DNA of 64,000 nt, taken from Escherichia phage ime. Of the stretch, positions 5,359 to 48,912 are shown piece by piece. Numbering within the stretch: the stretch's first letter is position 1; every line of letters begins with the position of its first letter. The translations under genes and the position numbers were made by a program. Location: the sequence record MN850576.1; one strand, written 5' to 3'. The notes beneath the pieces were generated by a model. The model saw only the letters and a list, made by a program, of their open reading frames with translations. It did not search any database and was not told the DNA's origin.

Positions 5359-5435
5359 TGGTCTCCACGGAGTGATTCGAACACTCGACCTCCTGATCCC
5401 AAATCAGGCGCTCTACCAAGCTGAGCTACGCGGAG
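5359..5435 (-). tRNA. tRNA-Pro (anticodon TGG)
   Basis: Manual cloverleaf: C1-G72 acceptor (typical of Pro), D-arm TAGCTCAGCTTGGTAGAGC, anticodon stem CCTGA/TCAGG with loop TTTGGGA, T-loop TTCGAAT, encoded CCA. Confidence 0.85.
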
Positions 5436-5446
5436 TATTTATTATT

Positions 5447-5521
5447 TGGTGGCCCTGGGTGGAATTGAACCACCGTCTGGCGATTATGAGTCGCTTGCTT
5501 GAACCTTCCAGCTACAGGGCC
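5447..5521 (-). tRNA. tRNA-Met (anticodon CAT; elongator-type or Ile-CAT not distinguishable)
   Basis: Manual fold: acceptor GGCCCTG/CAGGGCC, anticodon loop CTCATAA, T-arm GGTGG-TTCAATT-CCACC, encoded CCA; G1-C72 pair argues against initiator. Confidence 0.75.
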
Positions 5522-5522
5522 A

Positions 5523-5598
5523 TGGTGCTGATGGCAGGACTTGAACCTGCAACCTATTGATTACAAATCAATTGCACTACCAATTGTGCTACATCAGC
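5523..5598 (-). tRNA. tRNA-Thr (anticodon TGT)
   Basis: Manual fold: acceptor GCTGATG/CATCAGC, D-stem GCAC/GTGC, anticodon stem ATTGA/TCAAT loop TTTGTAA, T-arm GCAGG-TTCAAGT-CCTGC, CCA. Confidence 0.85.
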
Positions 5599-5603
5599 AA
5601 AAA

Positions 5604-5702
5604 GGTGCTAGGTGATGGAATCGAACCACCTATGTATTCAACGACTACCTCGTCTATTTTCAGGATTAAAAATCCTCGCCCTTGCCAAAGGGCTTACCTA
5701 GC
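5604..5702 (-). tRNA. aberrant tRNA-like element (Lys-TTT-like anticodon arm; about 25-nt insertion in variable region); possible pseudo-tRNA
   Basis: Perfect 7-bp acceptor GCTAGGT/ACCTAGC, D-arm GCCC-TTTGGCAA-GGGC, T-arm GGTGG-TTCGATT-CCATC, anticodon arm AGGA-TTTTTAA-TCCT; about 30 nt between anticodon and T arms; CC but no terminal A encoded. Confidence 0.4.
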
Positions 5703-5800
5703 TCAGTATGTTGACCATGTTGCTAGTCGGCGATGACGACTGTAACATTTGATAATCCGGTTCTGCTTCCGGCTTTCGCTTAATTACAAGGTCAACAATA

Positions 5801-5891
5801 TGGCTGAGGGTAATGGAATCGAACCATCATCAAGTCATCCTCAACGGGACGGTTTTCAAGACCGCTTGAGCACCATTGCTCCCTACCCTCA
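5801..5891 (-). tRNA. tRNA-Ser (anticodon TGA), type II with long variable arm
   Basis: Manual fold: acceptor TGAGGGT/ACCCTCA, anticodon stem GCGGT/ACCGT loop CTTGAAA, long variable arm, T-loop TTCGATT, encoded CCA; 91 nt. Confidence 0.8.
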
Positions 5892-6005
5892 TTTATAAAC
5901 AATACTGATAATGACACTGATTTTCGAGCAGTTAGTGACTAGTATAAACGACGATAAATATCAATGCCATTATCTGTATGATTTATGCATTTAAAACTAT
6001 AAATT

Positions 6006-6092
6006 TGGTGGGGAGTGGTGGAGTCGAACCACCCGAGTCGCAATGACAATAGATTTACAGTCTACACCGCTACCCCTACGGGATAACTCCCC
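6006..6092 (-). tRNA. tRNA-Tyr (anticodon GTA), type II
   Basis: Anticodon arm GTAGA-CTGTAAA-TCTAT, variable arm about 15 nt, T-arm GGTGG-TTCGACT-CCACC, acceptor GGGGAGT/ACTCCCC, CCA; resembles bacterial tRNA-Tyr layout. Confidence 0.8.
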
Positions 6093-6096
6093 AATT

Positions 6097-6171
6097 TGGC
6101 ACCCCGTACTGGACTCGAACCAGTGTCAACGGCTTAGAAGGCCGCTGCTTTATCCACTAAGCTAACAGGGC
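6097..6171 (-). tRNA. tRNA-Arg (anticodon TCT)
   Basis: Acceptor GCCCTGT/ACGGGGT (2 G-U pairs), D-stem GCTT/AAGC, anticodon stem GCGGC/GCCGT loop CTTCTAA, T-arm ACTGG-TTCGAGT-CCAGT, CCA. Confidence 0.8.
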
Positions 6172-7269: not shown

Positions 7270-7479
7270 TCAACAGATTCCTGCCTTATCCTTCCTGTCT
7301 GCGTATTCTTTAATCGCAACCTCATCTGCATTAGTGACCAGGTCTTCAAAGTAACTCTCAAGCTCCTCGTCAATGTCAGGAGACCAGCTCTTTTTCCTGT
7401 CAGTGTGAATTGCAGACTTGTTGAACTTATTACAGTTCTTTGCTACCGGGTTGTTCATTAAGCGCTCCTCAGCGTTCAT
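7270..7479 (-). CDS. hypothetical protein
   Basis: 69-aa ORF, co-directional, overlaps next gene start by 11 nt. Confidence 0.35.
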   Translation of the reverse strand: MNAEERLMNNPVAKNCNKFNKSAIHTDRKKSWSPDIDEELESYFEDLVTNADEVAIKEYADRKDKAGIC

Positions 7480-8047
7480 AGTAAATCTTATTTAACATTA
7501 CCTCATCCTTTGCAGAAAGGATATCAAGATATGCATCACCAAATCTTCCTGCAACAACCTCTGCATGATACATCACTTCGTTAACATCGTCAAGAGTGAT
7601 AACCGGATGACCATATCTTTCTGAATATTGTCTCAGGGTGCGATGTAACGAGTCGTCATCATATGCAGACTTTTTAATATCACAAACACGACGAATAGCC
7701 TTGATGTCGAAAAAACCTGTGCGATACCACCCAAGAAAAAGGTTTCGTGCAGTGTCAACATCTACATTGATACCATCAAGAACCTTATCTACAAGATAGC
7801 TGTCATCCTTTGGACCAGCGTCCTTAGTGCGAATGTAGTTGCCATCTTTTCCAGGCGACATCTCCTTCTCATCCCCAACCTGCATGCCATCATTTGGCGG
7901 TGTTAGCCACTTATCCGGATGCTTACGATCACGAGCGTTAGAATGATTACGCTGGAAACCGGGCTTCCACTTGAAAGTTTTCTCCATCTGTTCTTCATTC
8001 TGATAACGTTTTGCAATCTTTTCACGGTCATCTTTGCGTGAACCCAT
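7469..8047 (-). CDS. hypothetical protein
   Basis: 192-aa ORF; GAGGAGG SD immediately upstream of ATG at 8045-8047. Confidence 0.5.
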   Translation of the reverse strand: MGSRKDDREKIAKRYQNEEQMEKTFKWKPGFQRNHSNARDRKHPDKWLTPPNDGMQVGDEKEMSPGKDGNYIRTKDAGPKDDSYLVDKVLDGINVDVDTARNLFLGWYRTGFFDIKAIRRVCDIKKSAYDDDSLHRTLRQYSERYGHPVITLDDVNEVMYHAEVVAGRFGDAYLDILSAKDEVMLNKIYYER

Positions 8048-8132
8048 AGCTGCCTCCTCTTCAAGTTATAGAAAAACTAACTGTATCGCTTTGTAACGAG
8101 CTTTTCTATCAAACTGGTGCGATTGCATTACC

Positions 8133-8141
8133 TGGTATAGT
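8133..8141 (+). promoter_or_regulatory. candidate extended -10 promoter element (TGGTATAGT)
   Basis: TGnTATAGT matches the extended -10 consensus; sits just upstream of the GC-rich ORF-free island. Confidence 0.3.
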
Positions 8142-8149
8142 TTATATAG

Positions 8150-8450
8150 CTGTGGAGCGATTTAGGGGCCTTCTTGTCAGTTTCCACACATAAACTTCAT
8201 CCAAGCTCGCGCGGGAGACTCTCAACCGACTCCTTACGGCGCTGGCAAGCTTTCGTCGGTGGTCCACATCAGTGCTCGGCCTTTGGCCTGCGCTATCGCT
8301 TCGCTCCCACACATGTTAACAGACCTGTATGTATGAACTTCTGTTATTGTGTGCACCAAAGAGGCCCGGCATCTCGCCCCTCGTAGGCGAGTGCCAATGA
8401 AGGGCCGACACTGCCCATAGTAAGTAATAAATTTAAAACATGGTACTTAG
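8150..8450 (+). ncRNA. candidate non-coding RNA (GC-rich ORF-free island between extended -10 and strong terminator)
   Basis: About 250 bp visibly GC-richer than surroundings; only one RBS-less TTG-initiated ORF; bounded by promoter-like element and hairpin plus T-run; no match to any RNA family I can recognise. Confidence 0.25.
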
Positions 8451-8523
8451 GATCTAGTATATTCTACATAAGTTAAGTATATGTACTTGGTACCATAAGT
8501 ACTAGATCTTTTATTTTTTTTTT
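8451..8523 (+). terminator. rho-independent terminator (plus strand), long-loop hairpin plus T-run
   Basis: GATCTAGTA (8451-8459) pairs with TACTAGATC (8500-8508), followed by TTTTATTTTTTTTTT. Confidence 0.5.
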
Positions 8524-8555
8524 ATTATTTAGTTATTTTAGTTATATTCTTTATG

Positions 8556-8636
8556 TGTCCGTATCACGGACAGTTAGTGTCCGTATTACGGGCAGATGTG
8601 TCCGCGTGACGGACAGTAGTGTCCGTATCACGGACA
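8556..8636. repeat. array of four phased 17-bp palindromes TGTCCGYRTNACGGRCA (operator- or iteron-like)
   Basis: Copies at 8556-8572, 8578-8594, 8599-8615, 8620-8636 (21-22 bp period) plus degenerate fifth copy about 8643-8662; half-sites TGTCCGT / ACGGACA. Confidence 0.8.
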
Positions 8637-8711
8637 GTTAATAGTATCCGTTCCATGGCGAACATAAAACATACGAATCCTTATAGTACAGATATTTAAG
8701 TTTTTACTGGT

Positions 8712-9062
8712 CTAACCAGTTGTTGACATCCGAATAACTTCTTCTGGTGGCAAAACTTTGGAAAATGTGCATCTTTTACCTCTCCCTTGTGTGGATGTCT
8801 CAACCACTCCTGCACATTCTAAAGTTTTAACGCACGCTGCTGCTTTTGTTTTCTTTATCCCAACATCTGCTGCAATTTTCCTTGTGCTTGGTGTGAAGCG
8901 TGAATTTCCTCCAAGCTTATACCAGTTATGCAGGTAGCAGTATACGATCTTGTCATACAAGTCAAGAACAACAACCTCCCCAGTTGTGTCATTCAAAACT
9001 TTTGACATAGATAGTATTTCAAGGGGGACTTTAAGATATAGCAGCTTATCCCCATCTTTCAT
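8712..9062 (-). CDS. putative helix-turn-helix DNA-binding protein
   Basis: 116 aa; C-terminal segment STRKIAADVGIKKTKAAACVKTLECAGVV resembles a winged-HTH recognition region; adjacent to palindrome array. Confidence 0.45.
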   Translation of the reverse strand: MKDGDKLLYLKVPLEILSMSKVLNDTTGEVVVLDLYDKIVYCYLHNWYKLGGNSRFTPSTRKIAADVGIKKTKAAACVKTLECAGVVETSTQGRGKRCTFSKVLPPEEVIRMSTTG

Positions 9063-9109
9063 ATCTCCTGATTCTCCTTGTGTGGCAATTTTCTTTAAAA
9101 TAGCAGGGA

Positions 9110-9664
9110 TTACTCCCTGCTGTCAATATCAAAACTCATTGCAATACGGTATGCCTCTTCTAATGGTAAGAGTCTCCCCCACACATCCCAACCGACATCA
9201 AGCTGCCTGCCAAACAACTGTTGTGTGGTTCCGTGAGCATGACCGAACAGTTGGACTGATCCGTGAGGCTTTCTGTTCCACTTTGCAAACTGGTAATGGC
9301 TCATACAGATCAAATTCTTGTTGTGGCGAAGCTCGTAATAATCTACAACCTCATGACCGAACTCTTTCATAATTCTGACAGTCGTCCTTGTGTCATGGTT
9401 GCCACGAACAAGAATAATATGTCCGTTCAACATATTTAGAATATCTGGAAGCAAGTTGTTGATATTCTTATCATTAGTGCACGCAATATCTCCCAAGTGG
9501 AACACAGTGTCTGCAGGTGACACAACAGAGTTCCACTCGGCGATGATTCCCGCATTCATACTGTCAAGATTGTGATCATACTGAGATCTGTGTTTTTGAC
9601 ATGAATCAAACTCCATGACCCGCTGGTGGAGAAAGTGTGTGTCGCTTGTTACAAAGTATTTCAT
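9110..9664 (-). CDS. calcineurin-like metallophosphoesterase
   Basis: Starts MKYFVTSDTHF; motifs GDIACTNDKN and GNHD typical of metallophosphoesterases; ORF track start trimmed to Met at 9662-9664 with GAGGA SD; directly follows kinase stop. Confidence 0.7.
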   Translation of the reverse strand: MKYFVTSDTHFLHQRVMEFDSCQKHRSQYDHNLDSMNAGIIAEWNSVVSPADTVFHLGDIACTNDKNINNLLPDILNMLNGHIILVRGNHDTRTTVRIMKEFGHEVVDYYELRHNKNLICMSHYQFAKWNRKPHGSVQLFGHAHGTTQQLFGRQLDVGWDVWGRLLPLEEAYRIAMSFDIDSRE

Positions 9665-9671
9665 ACATTCC

Positions 9672-10139
9672 TCATTTAAGTTTAATGCAGTTTTTAAGCT
9701 GGCGTTCCATACGATCCACAACCTTGTCTGGAACATCATGAATGCTTTTATTACCGTGGCGGTTTTCAACCACGATCACGGTATAACTATACCCATGACT
9801 GATTGCCATGTCAACATATTCCTGCACATGTTTTTCTTTTGTAAACGTATTACTTACCACGATACGGTCGTATCCCATACGCATCATATCTTCTACGTTA
9901 TCTTTGCACCATTTTGCTGCGAGTGTTACTTTACTTGCATCCCAGTTGTAATTGCCGTCATCGTCATACCAGAACATGTCGTTCTCAAAATGTGGATACA
10001 GACCCTCTAAAGATAGCGCATTTGCCAGTGTTGATTTGCCAGACCCTGGTAGACCACGCACGATATATAGCATTTTAGACATAGTGACCCTCCGTTTTAA
10101 TTTCAACGGTAGTATACCTAACTGTTTTGTTAATTTCAA
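9672..10139 (-). CDS. P-loop kinase, polynucleotide-kinase-like
   Basis: 155 aa; Walker A GLPGSGKSTLA near N-terminus as in T4 Pnk kinase domain; followed by phosphoesterase gene. Confidence 0.55.
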   Translation of the reverse strand: MKLTKQLGILPLKLKRRVTMSKMLYIVRGLPGSGKSTLANALSLEGLYPHFENDMFWYDDDGNYNWDASKVTLAAKWCKDNVEDMMRMGYDRIVVSNTFTKEKHVQEYVDMAISHGYSYTVIVVENRHGNKSIHDVPDKVVDRMERQLKNCIKLK

Positions 10140-10203
10140 GTGTTGACACTAGGTTATTTGTGTGGCAGGATAGACTGACAAAATGACAAATGAGGAACGT
10201 ATA

Positions 10204-11118
10204 ATGAAGTATTTTAATGCAGACGACCTGGTTGACAAAGGTCTTGTAACCAGTAGGTATTACCCAGATCTCGGGTTAAAGATCTATAAATATGCTAGAA
10301 AAGTATTTTACAACAATTTATGGCATTTGTCCCCTCGTTTACTGGAGTGCCGAGGCATTGTTGTAGGTAATGAAGGAAATGTTGTGGCATGGCCCTTCAC
10401 AAAAGTGTTTAACTTGGGAGAAAACTCCACCAACCTGCCTGACAATAAGCTTGTGACTGCGGTAGAGAAAAAGAACGGATTCCTTGGTGTGGTATCATCT
10501 CATAAAGGTGACCTATTGTTCTCAACAACCGGGTCTCTTGATTCTCCATATTGTAACCTTGCAAAGGAAACCATCCAAGAGCAATGTGGTAATTTAGATC
10601 TTATCAAGAAGGTTATGGGCAATGAAAACATGACATTCATGTTTGAAATTTGTCACCCTTCAGATCCGCATATTGTTCAAGAAGACCATGGCGCATATTT
10701 GATAGGTTGCAGATATAATGATTCTGGAATAATGCTACCAGAAGCAGCTTTAGATGGGATTGCCAAATACCTTGGTGCAAAACGTCCTCACACTGTGCGT
10801 GAAATCCCGTTCAGCTATGCAAAAGAATTAGCCGCAGAAACAAGGGGCGAAGGGTATATGATCCGTAAGCCTTACTACCCTTATGACCTGCAGCTGAAGA
10901 TCAAGTCTCCATACTACCTGGCACGGAAGGCCGTAATGAGGGGTAAAGCTTGGAAGATTTGGGATGATGATATCTTTAAACGTGTTGACGAAGAGTTTTA
11001 CGGCATGGTAAACTTCATTCGTAACAATTACACAGAAGATGTGTGGAACTGCCTCCTGGAGCAGGAACGCCGTGAGATACTTGATTACTATTTCCACAAC
11101 GAGAACTATATGCAATGA
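10204..11118 (+). CDS. putative RNA ligase-like nucleotidyltransferase
   Basis: Covalent nucleotidyltransferase motifs: motif I KKNGF (KxNG), motif IV-like EGYMIRK, motif V-like LKIK; start set at Met 10204 with GAGGA SD (ORF track start 10183). Confidence 0.5.
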   Translation: MKYFNADDLVDKGLVTSRYYPDLGLKIYKYARKVFYNNLWHLSPRLLECRGIVVGNEGNVVAWPFTKVFNLGENSTNLPDNKLVTAVEKKNGFLGVVSSHKGDLLFSTTGSLDSPYCNLAKETIQEQCGNLDLIKKVMGNENMTFMFEICHPSDPHIVQEDHGAYLIGCRYNDSGIMLPEAALDGIAKYLGAKRPHTVREIPFSYAKELAAETRGEGYMIRKPYYPYDLQLKIKSPYYLARKAVMRGKAWKIWDDDIFKRVDEEFYGMVNFIRNNYTEDVWNCLLEQERREILDYYFHNENYMQ

Positions 11119-11465
11119 AGAAGTTGATTGTGTGGCTGGATGACTTGAGAGATCCGTCAAATTATGGGCTCCCCGACGCTATTTGGCTAAAGAATTCCTC
11201 CGAGTTTATAGATTTTATTAACGATAGGGGAAAGCTCTACAGACGCGTTTCTGAGTGGCACATGGACAACGACCTTGGAGAGTTGTTCGAAGGGTACGAT
11301 TGCCTATCTATGTTGGAGGAAAAATTTGTATTTGGTAAGCCCCCTGTAGTTGACAACGTGAAGATTTTCGTGCATACTTCTAACCCATCAGCGGCTCGTA
11401 AATTCATGCTTGCAGCTGACTCGTTTAAAAAGTTTGGAATAGAGATTAAACAAAACATCTACTGA
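11115..11465 (+). CDS. hypothetical protein (inside RNA-repair/Sir2 cluster)
   Basis: 116-aa ORF with ATGA overlap to upstream gene; no domain recognised. Confidence 0.45.
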   Translation: MKKLIVWLDDLRDPSNYGLPDAIWLKNSSEFIDFINDRGKLYRRVSEWHMDNDLGELFEGYDCLSMLEEKFVFGKPPVVDNVKIFVHTSNPSAARKFMLAADSFKKFGIEIKQNIY

Positions 11466-11473
11466 GGACACTT

Positions 11474-12235
11474 ATGCGACGACTGATTATTATCTCCGGT
11501 GCTGGTTTGAGCGCTGAATCTGGTATTCCCACTTTCCGATCTGGTAGCACTGCAATGTGGGAGAATTTCAGCATCGATGAGGTGTGCAACATCCACACCT
11601 TTGCCAAGAACTACTACAAGGTGCATGACTTTTACAATGCACGTCGTGTAGCTCTAGGCGGTGTTGAGCCTAACCTTGCACATCTTCGGATCGCTGAGTG
11701 GTATTCCCGCTGGTCTGGTCGTGTGATCAACCTTACCACCAATGTAGATGATTTGCTGGAGCGTGCTGGTGTAAAACATGAAGATATTTTACATGTTCAC
11801 GGGTATTTGCCAGAAATAGTCTATGAGGACGATGAAGGAAGTGACGTCATTAAGGACATTGGATACTCTGAGGTAGATGCAGGAAAGTATACCTGGGTTA
11901 AACCTAATGTGGTGTTCTTCGGAGAAGTAGCTCCGAAGTATACAGACATGTATGACCTGTTGACTTCTCTTACAAGCAATGATATGGTTATCCTTGTAGG
12001 GTGTTCCAACACAGTTATCAATTTTAACTGGGAGCTATTCCCTGCCTGCAATAAGGGCACCAAACTGCTGATCGTTAACAAATACGACTCACAGCATCTA
12101 GAGGAGAATGGCATTTCACGTAGTGATATTTACCAGTACGAGGATCGCGGCATCCCGGTTTGGTTTAACGGGGCGGTTGACGCTTTCTCTGATAAAACAT
12201 TCATTGAGACCGTAGAAAACTTTATGGAACTTTAA
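11474..12235 (+). CDS. Sir2-family (sirtuin-like) NAD-binding protein lacking the zinc-ribbon module
   Basis: N-terminal GAGLSAESGIPTFRSG, TTNVDDLLERAG and HVHG motifs match sirtuin NAD-binding/catalytic signatures; no CxxC pairs anywhere in the protein. Confidence 0.8.
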   Translation: MRRLIIISGAGLSAESGIPTFRSGSTAMWENFSIDEVCNIHTFAKNYYKVHDFYNARRVALGGVEPNLAHLRIAEWYSRWSGRVINLTTNVDDLLERAGVKHEDILHVHGYLPEIVYEDDEGSDVIKDIGYSEVDAGKYTWVKPNVVFFGEVAPKYTDMYDLLTSLTSNDMVILVGCSNTVINFNWELFPACNKGTKLLIVNKYDSQHLEENGISRSDIYQYEDRGIPVWFNGAVDAFSDKTFIETVENFMEL

Positions 12236-12248
12236 AAGGAGACCTTTA

Positions 12249-12962
12249 ATGCTGAATACTAAACTGATCGACAACCTGGAAAAACTGTCTCAGCCTGAAA
12301 ACTACCTTTGGTCTGCCAACTGGGTGGAAAACTGGAACCGTGTGGCAGCTAAAGTGAAAAAATCATACACACCATTCGAATTACAGCTTAGCTTCATTGA
12401 GGAAGAGTTCAATGAGGTTTTGGAAGAGCTGGAGAAAGGTGATGGTGGAGATCACCTGCTAAAAGAGGCCTGCGATCTTCACGTTGTCACAAGTTATGCC
12501 GCTTATCTTGTTAATGATAATCACGAAAAGTGGTCAAACCTGTTTGATAATCCACGAGGTCTTAAGTTCAAGATCGGTGAGTTCTATGATACACTGATCG
12601 CTGCGAAAAACACATCCAAGCAAAGAGCGTCAGCTTACCGCTTAGCGGAGTTGTCAACAGCTTTGCTGTTCCAGCTTCGCGGCGATGTGTGTGGGATGAT
12701 GCGGAAGGTTCTCAAATCTAATGACAGCAAGTTTGCACGGATCAACCATCTACGATATTCTCACGGTGCCAGTGCAGATATGTCTACTGAATTGCTCATA
12801 GAGTTAGAGATTGAAGATCTTGAGCGTCGTTTTGGTGGTCGCTACGAAGGTTTCGTTGCTAAAGAGGAGTTCTACAACGGTAATAAAGTTATTATATTCC
12901 TTGACAGTAAAGGTAAGATTATGAAGCCTTCGAGCTTCAAGGATGTAACAGAGTATATTTAA
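12249..12962 (+). CDS. hypothetical protein, possible MazG-like nucleotide pyrophosphohydrolase domain
   Basis: EEEFNEVLEEL ... KEACD segment resembles MazG EExxE...ExxD metal-binding pattern; weak. Confidence 0.3.
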   Translation: MLNTKLIDNLEKLSQPENYLWSANWVENWNRVAAKVKKSYTPFELQLSFIEEEFNEVLEELEKGDGGDHLLKEACDLHVVTSYAAYLVNDNHEKWSNLFDNPRGLKFKIGEFYDTLIAAKNTSKQRASAYRLAELSTALLFQLRGDVCGMMRKVLKSNDSKFARINHLRYSHGASADMSTELLIELEIEDLERRFGGRYEGFVAKEEFYNGNKVIIFLDSKGKIMKPSSFKDVTEYI

Positions 12963-12968
12963 CAACAT

Positions 12969-12997
12969 AGCCGGGATTACCCGGCTTTACTTATTAT
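12969..12997 (+). terminator. rho-independent terminator
   Basis: Hairpin AGCCGGG-ATTA-CCCGGCT followed by T-rich TTACTTATTAT, immediately after stop at 12960-12962. Confidence 0.5.
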
Positions 12998-13024
12998 GGA
13001 AAGTATGCAGTGAGGTAGTTAGTT

Positions 13025-13333
13025 ATGTACAAGCATTCCAGAGATCTTGAAAAAGATGCTGTGTTTGGCGACCAGATGAAGGAGCTGATCAAACTTATAG
13101 GTAGAATGGAAGATAAGTTTGACACTAAAATCTACATCGATAGCAAGATCTTCAACCACAAAATATGGACAAATGTGTGTGTTGGGCTACATGGTGATAA
13201 AGATATTGTAAATTTGGTTGTAATAAAGTTCATAGTGTGGCAGAATAGGACTATACGTTATTCCGATCCACACTTACTTGTTTATCCTATAAAAGACCTA
13301 CTACAGAAGGAGGACTGCAATGCCGTTATTTAA
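13025..13333 (+). CDS. hypothetical protein
   Basis: 102-aa ORF in rightward block. Confidence 0.4.
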   Translation: MYKHSRDLEKDAVFGDQMKELIKLIGRMEDKFDTKIYIDSKIFNHKIWTNVCVGLHGDKDIVNLVVIKFIVWQNRTIRYSDPHLLVYPIKDLLQKEDCNAVI

Positions 13334-13589
13334 TCTTGCTAAACCTGTAGAAGCACACCAGTTTGATGGAAGCTCTTCATCAGTATCTGATCTGCAACGG
13401 TGGATTGATACAGGTGTGTTTACATCGTCACCTGTTCGGACCAGAGATATTCGTCGCATGTGTGAGCTTGTTGAGCCGTTTGGCAACTTGGTTTTGTACC
13501 AGGGAGATTGGTTAGTTGACTTTATGGGAGACTGGTTGGTAATGAGTAAAGAAGAGATGTTTAAAATTTTTAAGGAAGAGGCCGAGTAA
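13320..13589 (+). CDS. hypothetical protein
   Basis: 89-aa ORF; overlaps neighbours by a few nt (coupled). Confidence 0.4.
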   Translation: MPLFNLAKPVEAHQFDGSSSSVSDLQRWIDTGVFTSSPVRTRDIRRMCELVEPFGNLVLYQGDWLVDFMGDWLVMSKEEMFKIFKEEAE

Positions 13590-14872
13590 TGCATCAAATC
13601 AAAACAACACTGTACGCACTGAACAAAGATGGCAGCTACCAACAGTGGAAAGTATTCACTGATGGCGAAAAGGTTATCGTAGAGTTTGGCAAGCTTGACG
13701 GTAAATTGCAGTACAAAGAGACGGTATGTACACCTAAAAACGTAGGTCGTGCCAACGAGACTACAGCTGAGCAACAGGCCGAGCTTGAGGCTATCAGCAA
13801 GTGGGAAAAACAAGTCCGTCTGGGGTATGTTGAAAACATGGAAGATTGCGAGCAGGGTGTTGATCTTTTACCTATGCTGGTGCATGACTACCTGAAGCGT
13901 GGCAAGGCACTTAAATTACCTTGCTGGATCTTGCGTAAGTTAGATGGCCTTCGTCTGCTTGTTGTTTTCCAAAATGGTGAGCCTAAATTTATTTCCCGTG
14001 GTAATAAGTCCTACCCTATTCAAGGAAAGCTTTTAGAGCAACTTCGTTCTTTCCATTCTACCACTGGGATTAAACAACTTGATGGGGAACTATACATTCA
14101 TGGTCTTCCTTTGCAGAAAATAGTGTCTCTTGCTAAACGGTGGCGCACACAGGAAGAGATTCAGGCCGAGATCGATAAAGACTATGAGGCAGATAAAAAA
14201 CGCCGTCATGCAGCAATTAAGGCAGGCTTATCAACATACAAAAACTTCAACAAGGTAGATATTCCTGTCGATGTTGAGCCTGTTCGTGATGATTTGCGTT
14301 ACGGTGGATACTGTAGCTACGATCTGGAGTATCACATTTTTGATATTCCTAGCGACAAGGTGTGGTGGGATCCAGAAACAGAGTCTGGACGCTGCAAGGA
14401 TCTTATGGATGCAGAGGATACCGTTACCACTCTGATGCTTGATCATATCAAGGTTGTTGACGCAGAGCTTGCGTACACAGTTGATCATTGCGAAGAATCT
14501 GTTGGTATATTCATGTCCGAAGGATATGAAGGTACTATCATGCGTAATTTCTGCGGTAAATATGAGTATGGTCAGCGAACATCTGAAGCATTGAAATGGA
14601 AAAAGTTCAACGACGCAGAGGTGAAAGTTATTGACGTTGAGAAAGATAAGAATGATGAAGGTGTTCTTATCTGTGTTGACAAGGAAGGTGTTGTTGTTAA
14701 AATGAAGATGAAAGGCACGCACGAGGAGCGTAGCTATGACAGGATGCAGGAAATGATCGGCAAGTTTGTCACCTTCAAATACCAAGCAAGGACAGAAGAC
14801 AACAACTACCAATTCCCTGTCGGTATCTGCGTCCGAAATGTTAACCCAGACACTTGGGAGGTGCTTGAATGA
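13589..14872 (+). CDS. ATP-dependent DNA ligase
   Basis: Motif I KLDGLR (KxDGxR), motif III-like LDGELYIHG; 427 aa. Confidence 0.75.
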   Translation: MHQIKTTLYALNKDGSYQQWKVFTDGEKVIVEFGKLDGKLQYKETVCTPKNVGRANETTAEQQAELEAISKWEKQVRLGYVENMEDCEQGVDLLPMLVHDYLKRGKALKLPCWILRKLDGLRLLVVFQNGEPKFISRGNKSYPIQGKLLEQLRSFHSTTGIKQLDGELYIHGLPLQKIVSLAKRWRTQEEIQAEIDKDYEADKKRRHAAIKAGLSTYKNFNKVDIPVDVEPVRDDLRYGGYCSYDLEYHIFDIPSDKVWWDPETESGRCKDLMDAEDTVTTLMLDHIKVVDAELAYTVDHCEESVGIFMSEGYEGTIMRNFCGKYEYGQRTSEALKWKKFNDAEVKVIDVEKDKNDEGVLICVDKEGVVVKMKMKGTHEERSYDRMQEMIGKFVTFKYQARTEDNNYQFPVGICVRNVNPDTWEVLE

Positions 14873-46871: not shown

Positions 46872-47080
46872 TAAACACACATGCATCTGAAGAGACATCC
46901 AAAGGAGTGACTATATGTCCCTTGGCTGAGCCAGTGAAAGAGGAAAACTTAGATTCTGAAGATTCTCCATCTTCGCTCCAGGTAGATCCTGAGGCTGATG
47001 ACCTAACGTGGGAAGACATCGTAGATATCTGGTTCTCTATTATGCCTGAGCACGAAGAGTTCAGGGGTGGTAGACTATGA
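46868..47080 (+). CDS. hypothetical acidic protein
   Basis: 70-aa ORF. Confidence 0.4.
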   Translation: MINTHASEETSKGVTICPLAEPVKEENLDSEDSPSSLQVDPEADDLTWEDIVDIWFSIMPEHEEFRGGRL

Positions 47081-47201
47081 AGCACCGAGCCCACACAGGT
47101 TCCTCATGCTAAAGCATGGCCTGAAGAGGCAAACGTGCATAATTCCTGTGCATCGGAACGTATAAAACCCTGTTCACACTCTCATTTCCAGAGGAGATTT
47201 C

Positions 47202-47417
47202 ATGAAGATAGAAATATTTGGTGGAGCTGACAACACTCGTGGCCTGATTTACCTTGAATTCGATGAATCATACCTGCCAGAGGTGTTAAATATGGACTCT
47301 GTTGCTGATGCTTTGGGAGTAAGTCCTAAAGATCTCTACTCTGGTGCTGAGATTGATGGTTGGGAGGAGACCATGAACATTGATTTCAGTGAAGTAGGTG
47401 ATGAACCACTGGACTGA
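47202..47417 (+). CDS. small acidic protein (family A-like N-terminus MKIEIFGG)
   Basis: 71-aa ORF after GGAGA. Confidence 0.4.
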   Translation: MKIEIFGGADNTRGLIYLEFDESYLPEVLNMDSVADALGVSPKDLYSGAEIDGWEETMNIDFSEVGDEPLD

Positions 47418-47546
47418 CACACAATTAGCTGCCAGGCTAAAGTGCTGGAAGCGCACCTATAACACATCTTTCAACTAAATTTCCTACCACCACAATCACT
47501 TACCTCCCACACATGACTGTTTGCTTGTTTAGTGAGCAGTCATGCC

Positions 47547-47574
47547 TTGACATTCTTGCCTATCCTGATAAAAT
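47547..47574 (+). promoter_or_regulatory. sigma70-like promoter (TTGACA-N16-TAAAAT) facing an ORF-free region
   Basis: -35 47547-47552, -10 47569-47574; no ORF of 60 aa or more downstream on plus strand for over 2 kb. Confidence 0.45.
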
Positions 47575-47579
47575 TAAGT

Positions 47580-47860
47580 TCTTCTCTTTTCTTTTACCGA
47601 GTAATTCGGGTTTTCTGTTCTCTTCGGTTTGAAGGGGTATGGAGATACACCTGAGTGAACAGGGTGAACAACCGAACCATTGGCTATGGCATTAGCATGG
47701 CGAAGCGGACGGGTGACGAAAGAGGGGCCGGAGGACACCAGTCACTGCCATATGGTATATGGGTGATAACCTGAAGAGTCTGAATAAGTGTTTAAGTACC
47801 AGTCAGAGGAAAAGGTGAATGGTAGCCGAAGGGGGAGGGGGGTTTCTTGTATCTTTAATT
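47580..47860 (+). ncRNA. candidate non-coding transcript (unclassified)
   Basis: Promoter-proximal ORF-free stretch with locally elevated GC and G-rich tract (GAAGGGGGAGGGGGG) followed by TTTCTTGTATCTTT. Confidence 0.2.
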
Positions 47861-48912
47861 TGTATATTATGTATACACTTGTAAACCAATCTCATCTGAA
47901 TCTGTTTACCACACAAAGCGGATAGAGACAAATATCACCTATTAAACTTGAATTATTTATAGAAAATACCACAACACCACTTAAGTCTTTGATTTTACAC
48001 ACAAATCCTACAGATATTCAACCTCCATATTTAACATACTTGTAACATATTCCATACTCTACCTGTCTGATCAATCTACCCAACCACATCCTTCATATTT
48101 TCCCTGTCTGTACCACCCCTGCCCCGCCGGGAGTCCCGTCATATCTGGCTTTCCAGTAAATAGCACACCCACAAATATCATTGCCTGAAGAGGGTTTCAT
48201 CCCATAATACATGCCTTACCTGAAGAGCGCTTCATACACCACGTAAATTTTTTAATTGACCTGCAATTTTCCCGTCATGACCCCCCCCCTGCCCCGCCGG
48301 AGAGGTTGGCTTTTCCCACACAGACCTGAAGAGTCAGCCAGAAATATCTGAACAGGTCCAGTTCTGCCTTGTCATGAGCCGTAGCGACTGGAGTGCTGCC
48401 AGGCGGACGGAATGGGAATACTTCTCATTCTTATAATAATTCTCAAATATCGAGGCAGTGAGGCAAATTAATAGGTGAGGCCGTTCACACAGTGGCACAA
48501 CATTTGCAATCTATTTTGTGAGGGTGAATGAGAATACCTATCATTGTGAGAACCTTTATCATTACGGGCAATTTAACATAATACCCATTATGCGCACCAC
48601 TGGCGATACATACAGGGATTGATACCATGAGTTACAGTTTACGCATATAACAATCATATTTCTTACTATTTGTGTGGGATATAGTTAGCAACCAATAGAT
48701 TAGATATTGACCTACAGACTTCCAACCGTCTAGACGTCTAAACGCCCACACACCAAGGGTTATACATACATTACTGAATGTAAACAGGGCCGCAAAAATG
48801 CTACCATACCAGTTTGTAAATTTTTCATGCAGCACTTGACAAAGAGGAGAAAAACTTGTCTGACATAATGTGACCTAACTGACACAACATGACACTTTTA
48901 CACACCTATTAG

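Follow-up and report, generated by a model that had tools for sequence, protein, structure and literature searches.

In phage T4, Pnkp and Rnl1 repair tRNA-Lys and so counteract PrrC, an anticodon nuclease. Where RNA is cut by metal-independent ribonucleases of the host or of competitors (anticodon nucleases, HEPN toxins, colicins and Cas13 are examples), one end bears a 2',3'-cyclic phosphate and the other a 5'-OH. In bacteria, the Pnkp-Hen1 system of Clostridium thermocellum and the Pnkp1-Rnl-Hen1 system of Capnocytophaga gingivalis bring together kinase and ligase with a 3'-end healer of the metallophosphoesterase type. Among phages, a sirtuin-centred RNA-repair neighbourhood, called type 2, has been described with Escherichia phage V5 and Proteus phage Mydo as prototypes (Iyer, Burroughs, Anantharaman and Aravind, 2022; PMC9503650, section 3.7.3). 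In these medium-sized phages it comprises a sirtuin, a T4-like ligase, a cyclic-phosphate-processing receiver-like (cREC) protein, a nucleotide kinase and a MazG-like protein, with or without a calcineurin-like phosphoesterase, and the V5 neighbourhood was read as devoted to the clean-up and ligation of RNA termini that carry 2',3'-cyclic phosphates, i.e., as predicted RNA repair. In a 2021 paper on jumbo phages (PMC7824862), the same group gave cREC its definition and also mentioned calcineurin-like phosphatases in the context of phage RNA repair. We have analysed a window of 64,000 nucleotides (the whole stretch of DNA considered here) from Escherichia phage ime (MN850576.1). All six genes of the type 2 neighbourhood are present between positions 9110 and 12962, and the window is thus an instance of it, with no difference in content. 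Our results indicate that this locus is probably an RNA (most likely tRNA) heal-and-seal repair system of an rV5-like coliphage, and that its most likely role is to mend tRNAs cut by bacterial defence nucleases.

The initial annotation of the locus had proposed a kinase, a metallophosphoesterase and an RNA ligase-like protein encoded by three separate genes. These genes, and all the motifs quoted for them, are present where it placed them:

10082 to 9672, minus strand: kinase, a stand-alone mini polynucleotide-kinase-like P-loop protein of 136 amino acids (P-loop motif RGLPGSGKSTLA)
9664 to 9110, minus strand: phosphoesterase, a binuclear metallophosphoesterase assigned to the aq_1665 clade, 184 amino acids (MKYFVTSDTHF, GDIACTNDKN, GNHD)
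10183 to 11118, plus strand: ligase, a predicted Rnl1-type ATP-dependent RNA ligase of 311 amino acids (KKNGF, EGYMIRK, LKIK), with an alternative start ATG at 10204

The functional reading attached to them, in which a 5'-kinase and a 3'-end phosphoesterase heal RNA ends for an RNA ligase to seal, probably in counter-defence, holds as far as computation tells.

The kinase belongs to a very large family, matched by at least 7,989 database clusters, whose members are stand-alone proteins about 130 amino acids long. It is recognised by Pfam AAA_33 (1e-10) and PHROG 2071 (3e-58) and, more weakly, by PHROG 505, 'polynucleotide kinase' (5e-10). Residues R9, G10, G15, K16, T18, D35, N78, T79, E106-N107-R108-H109 and H115 are invariant in the family. 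The signature of the polynucleotide-kinase clade is present and invariant, as the P-loop G10-x4-G15-K16-S17-T18 followed by D35 after strand 2, and D35 pairs in the profile alignment with the Asp of 'NRDD' in Pnkp1 (4xrp). A search of the PDB with the single sequence yielded nothing usable and a family profile was needed. With a profile built from 37 family members, the best matches are two fungal kinases, 9d8a and 9drz (deposited under the name 'Rhizopus azygosporus Kinase' and as a kinase of Lichtheimia corymbifera), PSTK (3adb), Pnkp1 (4xrp), T4 Pnk (1ly1/1ltq) and the C. thermocellum kinase CthPnk (4gp7). The E-values are modest (6e-6 to 8e-4), but several of the matches are full-length, all of these to RNA- or tRNA-end kinases, whereas adenylate, shikimate and gluconate kinases match at the P-loop only. 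The AlphaFold (AF2) model of the kinase (predicted local distance difference test, pLDDT, 85) gives T4 Pnk (1ly1) as the top Foldseek match, then PSTK-tRNA and CthPnk, at a TMq of 0.73-0.74 each. Both the profile and the fold thus put the kinase with the polynucleotide and tRNA kinases and not with the deoxynucleoside monophosphate (dNMP) or adenylate kinases, and the corresponding activity is predicted from this relationship. A separate dNMP kinase gene is found elsewhere in the genome of a close relative.

The phosphoesterase exceeds the cut-offs of both Pfam Metallophos_2 and Metallophos and matches PHROG 547 (1.5e-51). Its metal-site motifs are complete (D8, H10, G58-D59, G88-N89-H90-D91, H123 and G141-H142-x-H144) and invariant in 39 family sequences. 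The closest solved structure is aq_1665 of Aquifex aeolicus (PDB 1xm7), matched at 1.8e-10 by the single sequence and, over almost its full length, at 3.9e-28 by the profile. Far behind it in the profile search come GpdQ, YfcE, MJ0936, the DNA nuclease 'Nuclease MPE' (6nvo), Rv0805 and ApaH, and the nearest characterised relatives are the phosphodiesterases GpdQ, YfcE, MJ0936 and Rv0805. No protein Ser/Thr phosphatase was matched in the PDB by this profile, nor was any CthPnkp or lambda-phosphatase chain at E-values up to 0.1. By its profile matches, the phosphoesterase belongs to the aq_1665 clade, beside phosphodiesterases, and lies outside the clade of lambda-phosphatase and CthPnkp; it is not one of the Ser/Thr protein phosphatases. 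A separate observation concerns its C-terminus: a D-H-H motif is conserved there in most relatives, and the rV5-type protein, which ends in ...DIDSRE, lacks it.

The ligase matches Pfam RNA_lig_T4_1 (PF09511) across the whole profile (1.1e-14; 55.3 bits for a cut-off of 28.3) and PHROG 562, the T4 gp63 family (2.8e-66). As for the kinase, the single-sequence search of the PDB yielded nothing usable and a family profile was needed; when built from 37 relatives, it has T4 Rnl1 as its sole PDB match (5e-13). The invariant positions among these relatives are R57-G58, P71, K74, F76, N77, K96-x-N98-G99, E155, E223-G224 and K239-x-K241. The alignment with T4 Rnl1 pairs ECRG, PxxKxFN, motif I (K96-K-N-G with K-E-D-G), FE, EGY and KIK, so that the upstream elements specific to Rnl1 (the ECRG arginine and P-x-x-K-x-F-N) are present. 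In agreement with this, the AF2 model (pLDDT 91.6) has Rnl3, the fungal Trl1 ligase domain and T4 Rnl1 as top folds (E about 1e-11), whereas DNA ligases are matched at 2e-5 or worse. Profile and fold together thus group the ligase with RNA ligases and not with the DNA ligase type. Its true start may be the ATG at 10204, since homologues begin there, a GAGGA lies 7 nucleotides upstream and residues 1-7 are disordered in the model.

These genes also travel together in distant phages. We examined 84 phage loci (80 on viral contigs and 4 from metagenomes) whose kinase is only 42-51% identical to this one, their open reading frames (ORFs) being assigned with family hidden Markov models for the kinase, the phosphoesterase and the Rnl1-type ligase, and, for the remaining families, with jackhmmer seeded by single proteins. 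In 64 of these loci a phosphoesterase of the same family accompanies the kinase, always on the kinase strand. It lies at most 20 nucleotides from the kinase in 27 loci, with the kinase first in 18 and the phosphoesterase first in 9. An RNA ligase is found in 55 loci, either Rnl1-like (31) or of the PF09414 type (30), with both in 6, and kinase, phosphoesterase and RNA ligase occur together in 46. By comparison, cREC is present in 20, a DNA ligase in 8 and Sir2 in 4. Many of these contigs are short and the partner counts are therefore lower bounds; in the 27 loci with full flanks, the ligase is present in 22 and the phosphoesterase in 17. When the loci are collapsed to 24 kinase clusters (70% identity), 16 clusters retain the phosphoesterase, 19 a ligase and 15 all three genes, and about 30 different gene orders are seen. 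In a bacterial control of 80 genome loci with the same kinase family, the phosphoesterase and an RNA ligase were found in only 4 each, some or all of which may be phage DNA (Fisher p of 1.5e-22 for the phosphoesterase and 3e-17 for the RNA ligase, phage versus bacterial loci). The clustering is far beyond chance. What is widespread is a core made of the kinase and the phosphoesterase and not of the sirtuin; it often occurs without Sir2 and combines with either of two RNA ligase families. This is where our results go beyond the type 2 neighbourhood as published (PMC9503650). Among the matches listed, at least 572 viral stretches encode a relative of the kinase.

The two proteins may also be joined in some other phages. 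PHROG 8238, a 737-position 'RNA ligase' profile, is matched by the kinase at positions 2-109 and by the ligase at positions 440-686, which hints at a fusion of their relatives; this profile is the only sign of it, and no fused ORF (one ORF carrying two families) was found in the 84 phage loci.

From the anatomy of the genes and the established T4 and bacterial pathways, we infer the following mechanism. The mini Pnk-type kinase would add a phosphate to the 5'-OH end; the aq_1665-clade phosphoesterase, cREC or both would open or remove the 2',3'-cyclic or 3'-phosphate; and the Rnl1-type ligase would be adenylylated at K96, as lysyl-AMP, before sealing the break. That the substrates would be RNA or tRNA, that phosphoesterase and cREC would divide the labour between them and that the outcome would be counter-defence all belong to what we infer here, and what suggests tRNA in particular is the family relationships together with the nearby phage tRNA genes. 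Family placements, intact active-site residues, operon anatomy and linkage across distant phages are, for their part, results of the analysis.

The locus does not stop at the three genes of the initial annotation, which drew the module too small. The ligase is translationally coupled to cREC, and Sir2 and MazG-like genes follow up to a terminator-like hairpin. The further features of the region are:

11115 to 11465, plus strand: cREC (cyclic-phosphate-processing receiver-like) protein, 116 amino acids, Pfam PF20274
11474 to 12235, plus strand: Sir2-family protein without the CxxC zinc module, Pfam SIR2, PHROG 2162
12249 to 12962, plus strand: candidate MazG-like nucleotide pyrophosphohydrolase, PHROG 671
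10139 to 10111, minus strand: sigma-70-like promoter candidate for the kinase-phosphoesterase pair, TTGAAA-17-TATACT, matching the consensus at 10/12 positions
12969 to 12986, both strands: terminator-like G+C-rich hairpin, from a sequence scan, closing the ligase-cREC-Sir2-MazG unit
5359 to 6171, minus strand: seven tRNA genes (Pro, Met/Ile2-CAU, Thr, an odd Lys-UUU, Ser, Tyr and Arg), from ARAGORN, Rfam and the annotation of relatives
13589 to 14872: ATP-dependent DNA ligase gene, 2.5 kb downstream of the module

As read from its gene layout, the module consists of six genes in two divergent operons, kinase-phosphoesterase on one side and ligase-cREC-Sir2-MazG-like on the other. The kinase stop codon (TGA, 9674-9672) is separated by 7 nucleotides from the phosphoesterase ATG at 9664, and a GAGGA overlaps the stop; the translational coupling of the two genes claimed earlier is thus plausible, as is mere close coupling, but it is not proven. 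Kinase and ligase diverge from a spacer of 100 nucleotides (10083-10182). On the ligase side, the stop codon overlaps the cREC start in an ATGA at 11115-11118. The record of phage Gotham has a promoter prediction at the same place as the kinase-side candidate and a terminator at the position matching the 12969-12986 hairpin. A scan of the 100-nucleotide spacer gave no sigma-70-like promoter for the ligase unit, a TTGACA being visible there without a good, properly spaced -10 element. The sign of the GC skew switches at the divergent spacer (10001-10200) and at about 47000-48000, matching changes of transcription direction. A small helix-turn-helix protein (8712-9062, minus strand; HTH_36, with DUF6945 just under the cut-off) is encoded 47 nucleotides downstream of the phosphoesterase; its gene has its own promoter-like site (9126-9097), and records differ in naming it a transcriptional regulator or a replication initiation protein.

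The three genes that follow the ligase are also recognisable. The cREC protein matches Pfam PF20274, cREC_REC (8.3e-15; cut-off 27), described in Pfam as a cyclic-phosphate processing receiver domain, and PHROG 1479; its acidic pocket (D9, D10, D51 and D53) and R12, H87 and N90 are conserved in 17 relatives, and the gene after the ligase in phage 241Ecol014PP is annotated 'cyclic-phosphate processing domain-containing protein'. The Sir2 protein (Pfam SIR2, 5.5e-27; PHROG 2162, 3e-109) retains the NAD-binding and catalytic motifs GAGLS, TNVDD and HVHG. Unlike canonical deacetylase sirtuins, which have a CxxC...CxxC zinc module, it has no CxxC pair in its sequence. The MazG-like protein matches PHROG 671 (5.7e-22) and no Pfam or NCBIfam family; its gene is annotated 'nucleotide pyrophosphohydrolase' in 241Ecol014PP and is assigned to the MazG superfamily in PMC9503650.

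The genome is of the rV5-like E. coli myovirus type, its relatives being classified in the Vequintavirinae, genus Vequintavirus, with genomes of about 137 kb. The 4.5 kb around the module are 99.8% identical to Escherichia phages phita32 and rV5_ev146, and 121 phage records have at least 90% identity to this region, 117 of which cover at least 80% of it. About 120 GenBank phages have the three-gene set, and their records already name the first gene polynucleotide kinase or AAA family ATPase, the second phosphoesterase or metallophosphatase and the third RNA ligase. The arrangement was presented as non-canonical in the initial annotation, a description that does not survive these records nor the same neighbourhood in phage V5 (PMC9503650): rV5-like coliphages have this locus as a standard feature, which had been both annotated and predicted before, and it is not novel. 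More distant layouts were seen as well. Three phage contigs (L006, L025 and L046, of 148, 94 and 147 kb) carry all the genes on a single strand, where the phosphoesterase is followed by Rnl1, cREC, kinase, Sir2, DNA ligase and MazG-like. Because of this one-strand order, the divergent layout of rV5-like phages looks like a local inversion of the kinase-phosphoesterase pair. In five freshwater phage contigs (L003-L005, L064 and L068), the kinase-phosphoesterase pair is found with an RNA ligase of the PF09414/PHA02142 type, a 'Swiss-army-knife' HAD phosphatase (PF18143) and Nudix; these contigs would thus encode two different candidate 3'-end phosphatases.

How the locus compares with the described systems can now be specified. 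It shares with T4 Pnkp and Rnl1 the 5'-kinase, the 3'-end healing, an Rnl1-type ligase and the distribution of healing and ligase over separate polypeptides; the kinase domain of T4 Pnk is the nearest fold to its kinase, and the catalytic domain of its ligase matches T4 Rnl1. It differs in that T4 has its phosphatase fused to the kinase, as a HAD (DxDxT) domain, whereas here it is a separate metallophosphoesterase, and in that the genes are clustered with cREC, Sir2 and MazG-like genes, which T4 is not known to have. With the two bacterial systems it shares the three kinds of enzyme, and the kinase domains CthPnk and Pnkp1 are among the best sequence and fold matches of its kinase. In CthPnkp, however, kinase, phosphoesterase and ligase are in one polypeptide, in contrast to the three separate genes found here, and the CthPnkp phosphoesterase is assigned in PMC2190708 to the lambda-phosphatase clade, to which the phage protein, by its profile matches, does not belong. 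A counterpart of Hen1 was not seen either, no methyltransferase domain being detected in the nine scanned proteins (7469-14872). The label 'Pnkp-like', if meant as membership, must therefore be abandoned, and the locus fits the Pnkp logic only. A hypothetical parallel can finally be drawn with Trl1 and Tpt1 of fungi and plants, as the ligase fold is similar to the Trl1 ligase domain and the fungal kinases 9d8a and 9drz are the top matches of the kinase profile. It would extend to the whole pathway (kinase, cyclic phosphodiesterase, ligase and NAD-dependent step) only if Sir2 acted like Tpt1. Even so, Trl1 is a single polypeptide with a 2H-type cyclic phosphodiesterase, and Tpt1 has an ADP-ribosyltransferase fold, not that of a sirtuin.

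Several points weigh against an RNA heal-and-seal system. aq_1665, the nearest solved relative of the phosphoesterase, is a protein of unknown function, from a cellular organism and with unknown partners, and it does not inform on the substrate. The weaker neighbours of the phosphoesterase include the DNA nuclease 'Nuclease MPE' and the NCBIfam model PdeM, which is DNA-ligase-associated, and a DNA ligase gene does lie downstream of the module. The roles of phosphoesterase and cREC look redundant. The kinase family is not exclusively an RNA-repair part, because it is also found alone, almost always without phosphoesterase or ligase partners, in chromosomes of Bacteroidota, Vibrio, Leptospira and Halomonadaceae (37-49% identity; loci L087-L166); in the five of these loci inspected for conserved partners, the neighbours were unrelated and showed no pattern. 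As for the ligase, its alignment with T4 Rnl1 ends just past motif V (profile position 237), after which its model has only about 65 mainly helical residues, and no match to the T4 Rnl1 C-terminal domain was found in the profile alignment, the protein having 311 amino acids for 375 in the T4 Rnl1 chain 2c5u_A. Its score against the NCBIfam T4 RnlA equivalog is also low (38.7 bits for a cut-off of 242). According to reports from the Shuman laboratory, the C-terminal helical domain of T4 Rnl1 confers tRNA specificity. The ligase is of the Rnl1-type family by its catalytic domain without being an orthologue of T4 Rnl1 in the specificity domain, and its tRNA specificity can therefore only be presumed. 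Finally, our literature searches found no experiments on this locus in rV5-like phages.

The best-surviving alternative keeps RNA repair and changes the chemistry alone. In the NAD-dependent, 'yeast-type' route that Iyer et al. (2022) put forward, the cyclic phosphate would be opened to a 2'-phosphate by cREC or by the phosphoesterase, kinase and ligase would seal the ends, and Sir2, acting like Tpt1/KptA, would strip the 2'-phosphate from the junction with NAD+, phosphoesterase and MazG-like protein then clearing the ADP-ribose cyclic-phosphate by-product. The phosphoesterase would in this case not be the healer of RNA 3' ends. The order ligase-cREC-Sir2-MazG-like, intact up to the terminator-like hairpin and recurring in the relatives of about 147 kb (L006, L025 and L046), speaks for such a route, and so does the fit of the ligase fold to the fungal Trl1 ligase domain, which is about as good as that to T4 Rnl1 and which keeps this route open. 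The fungal Trl1 ligase domain requires a 2'-phosphate. By sequence, however, the ligase is nearest to T4 Rnl1, and T4 Rnl1 seals 3'-OH/2'-OH ends. The common partners of the kinase are the phosphoesterase and the ligase, and not Sir2 or cREC, so that the core works without Sir2. We also know of no sirtuin shown to have 2'-phosphotransferase activity. Its removal of a 2'-phosphate has been published, but only as a proposal (PMC9503650, section 3.7.3). We consequently regard the NAD-dependent route as possible but rather unlikely, and place above it the simple, T4-like one, because the kinase-phosphoesterase-ligase core mostly occurs without Sir2.

One tentative extension we hold to be doubtful as a whole. 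In it, kinase and aq_1665-clade phosphoesterase would form a distinct two-gene RNA end-healing cassette, an alternative to the HAD-type Pnkp of T4, freely mixed with Rnl1-type or PF09414-type ligases in hundreds of environmental phages. In rV5-like phages, this cassette would feed a second, NAD-dependent branch in which cREC and a zinc-less sirtuin remove the 2'-phosphate, a phage analogue of eukaryotic Trl1/Tpt1 made from unrelated folds.

The enzymes could alternatively work on DNA. Kinase and phosphoesterase would then serve the ATP-dependent DNA ligase encoded nearby, either by cleaning 5'-OH and 3'-phosphate DNA ends or as a nuclease, in replication, recombination or the repair of restriction damage. 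T4 Pnkp and mammalian PNKP act on DNA too, and mammalian PNKP is among the fold matches of the kinase; the DNA ligase gene and the weak PdeM and 'Nuclease MPE' matches of the phosphoesterase point in the same direction. The PdeM match, however, reaches just 20.5 bits for a cut-off of 150, far fewer of the 84 loci have such a DNA ligase with the kinase than have RNA ligases, and the gene that diverges from the kinase codes for an RNA ligase, itself coupled to a protein with a cyclic-phosphate domain. This makes a function in DNA-end processing improbable.

Even less probable in our view is that phosphoesterase, cREC, Sir2 and MazG-like protein degrade immune signals derived from cyclic nucleotides or ADP-ribose (those of CBASS, Thoeris or type III CRISPR), without any RNA repair. 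It is true that the nearest characterised phosphoesterases cleave small diesters or cyclic nucleotides (GpdQ, Rv0805 and YfcE), and that cREC and other phosphodiesterases have been discussed as possible processors of ADP-ribose derivatives and cyclic nucleotides (PMC7824862; PMC9503650). Destruction of signals would nevertheless leave kinase and ligase without a role, and would not explain why the phosphoesterase tracks the kinase and two RNA ligase families. That unrelated accessory genes came to lie together by chance, in a variable region close to the tRNA cluster which has homing endonuclease genes and many small ORFs without known function, is hardly credible, since the linkage persists over about 30 gene orders and 24 kinase clusters, the bacterial control does not show it, and the stretch is conserved in 117 of the 121 related phage records.

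Coming back to RNA repair, the phage's own tRNA genes deserve attention. The module had been described as lying beside a cluster of seven tRNAs; the seven genes do exist, but they are 2.9 kb away, past the helix-turn-helix gene and several small ORFs. One of them (5604-5702, minus strand) is 97-99 nucleotides long and has a normal 7-nucleotide anticodon loop with UUU (Lys) and an extra stem-loop of about 27 nucleotides in the variable region, which is unusual for a tRNA-Lys. ARAGORN reports a 4-base anticodon for it, its Rfam tRNA score is only 35.5 bits, and it is annotated as tRNA-Lys in phage WalterGehring and unannotated in 241Ecol014PP. We considered an intron in its anticodon loop, needing heal-and-seal splicing, and rejected it: the extra 27 nucleotides or so are in the variable region and the anticodon loop is normal. 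Since tRNA-Lys(UUU) is the classic target of anticodon nucleases, this deviant copy near the repair locus may be a nuclease-resistant substitute. The CAU tRNA is named tRNA-Ile (ATA) in WalterGehring and tRNA-Met elsewhere. An Rfam 'Plastid-ycf2' match at 5449-5521 on the plus strand (41.3 bits for a gathering threshold of 65.7) is antisense to it and was discarded as an artefact of complementarity.

What our analysis adds to the published prediction is quantitative, namely the linkage by which the kinase-phosphoesterase pair stands out as the widespread core. Its value for enzymology lies in how common this pair is in uncultured phages, the phosphoesterase, cREC and this clade of sirtuins having predicted activities only. 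Phages of the rV5-like type are used in the biocontrol of E. coli O157 and are present in phage collections. If our reading is true, they carry a complete tRNA repair kit near their own tRNA genes, which would help to explain their tolerance of hosts with tRNA-cutting defences.

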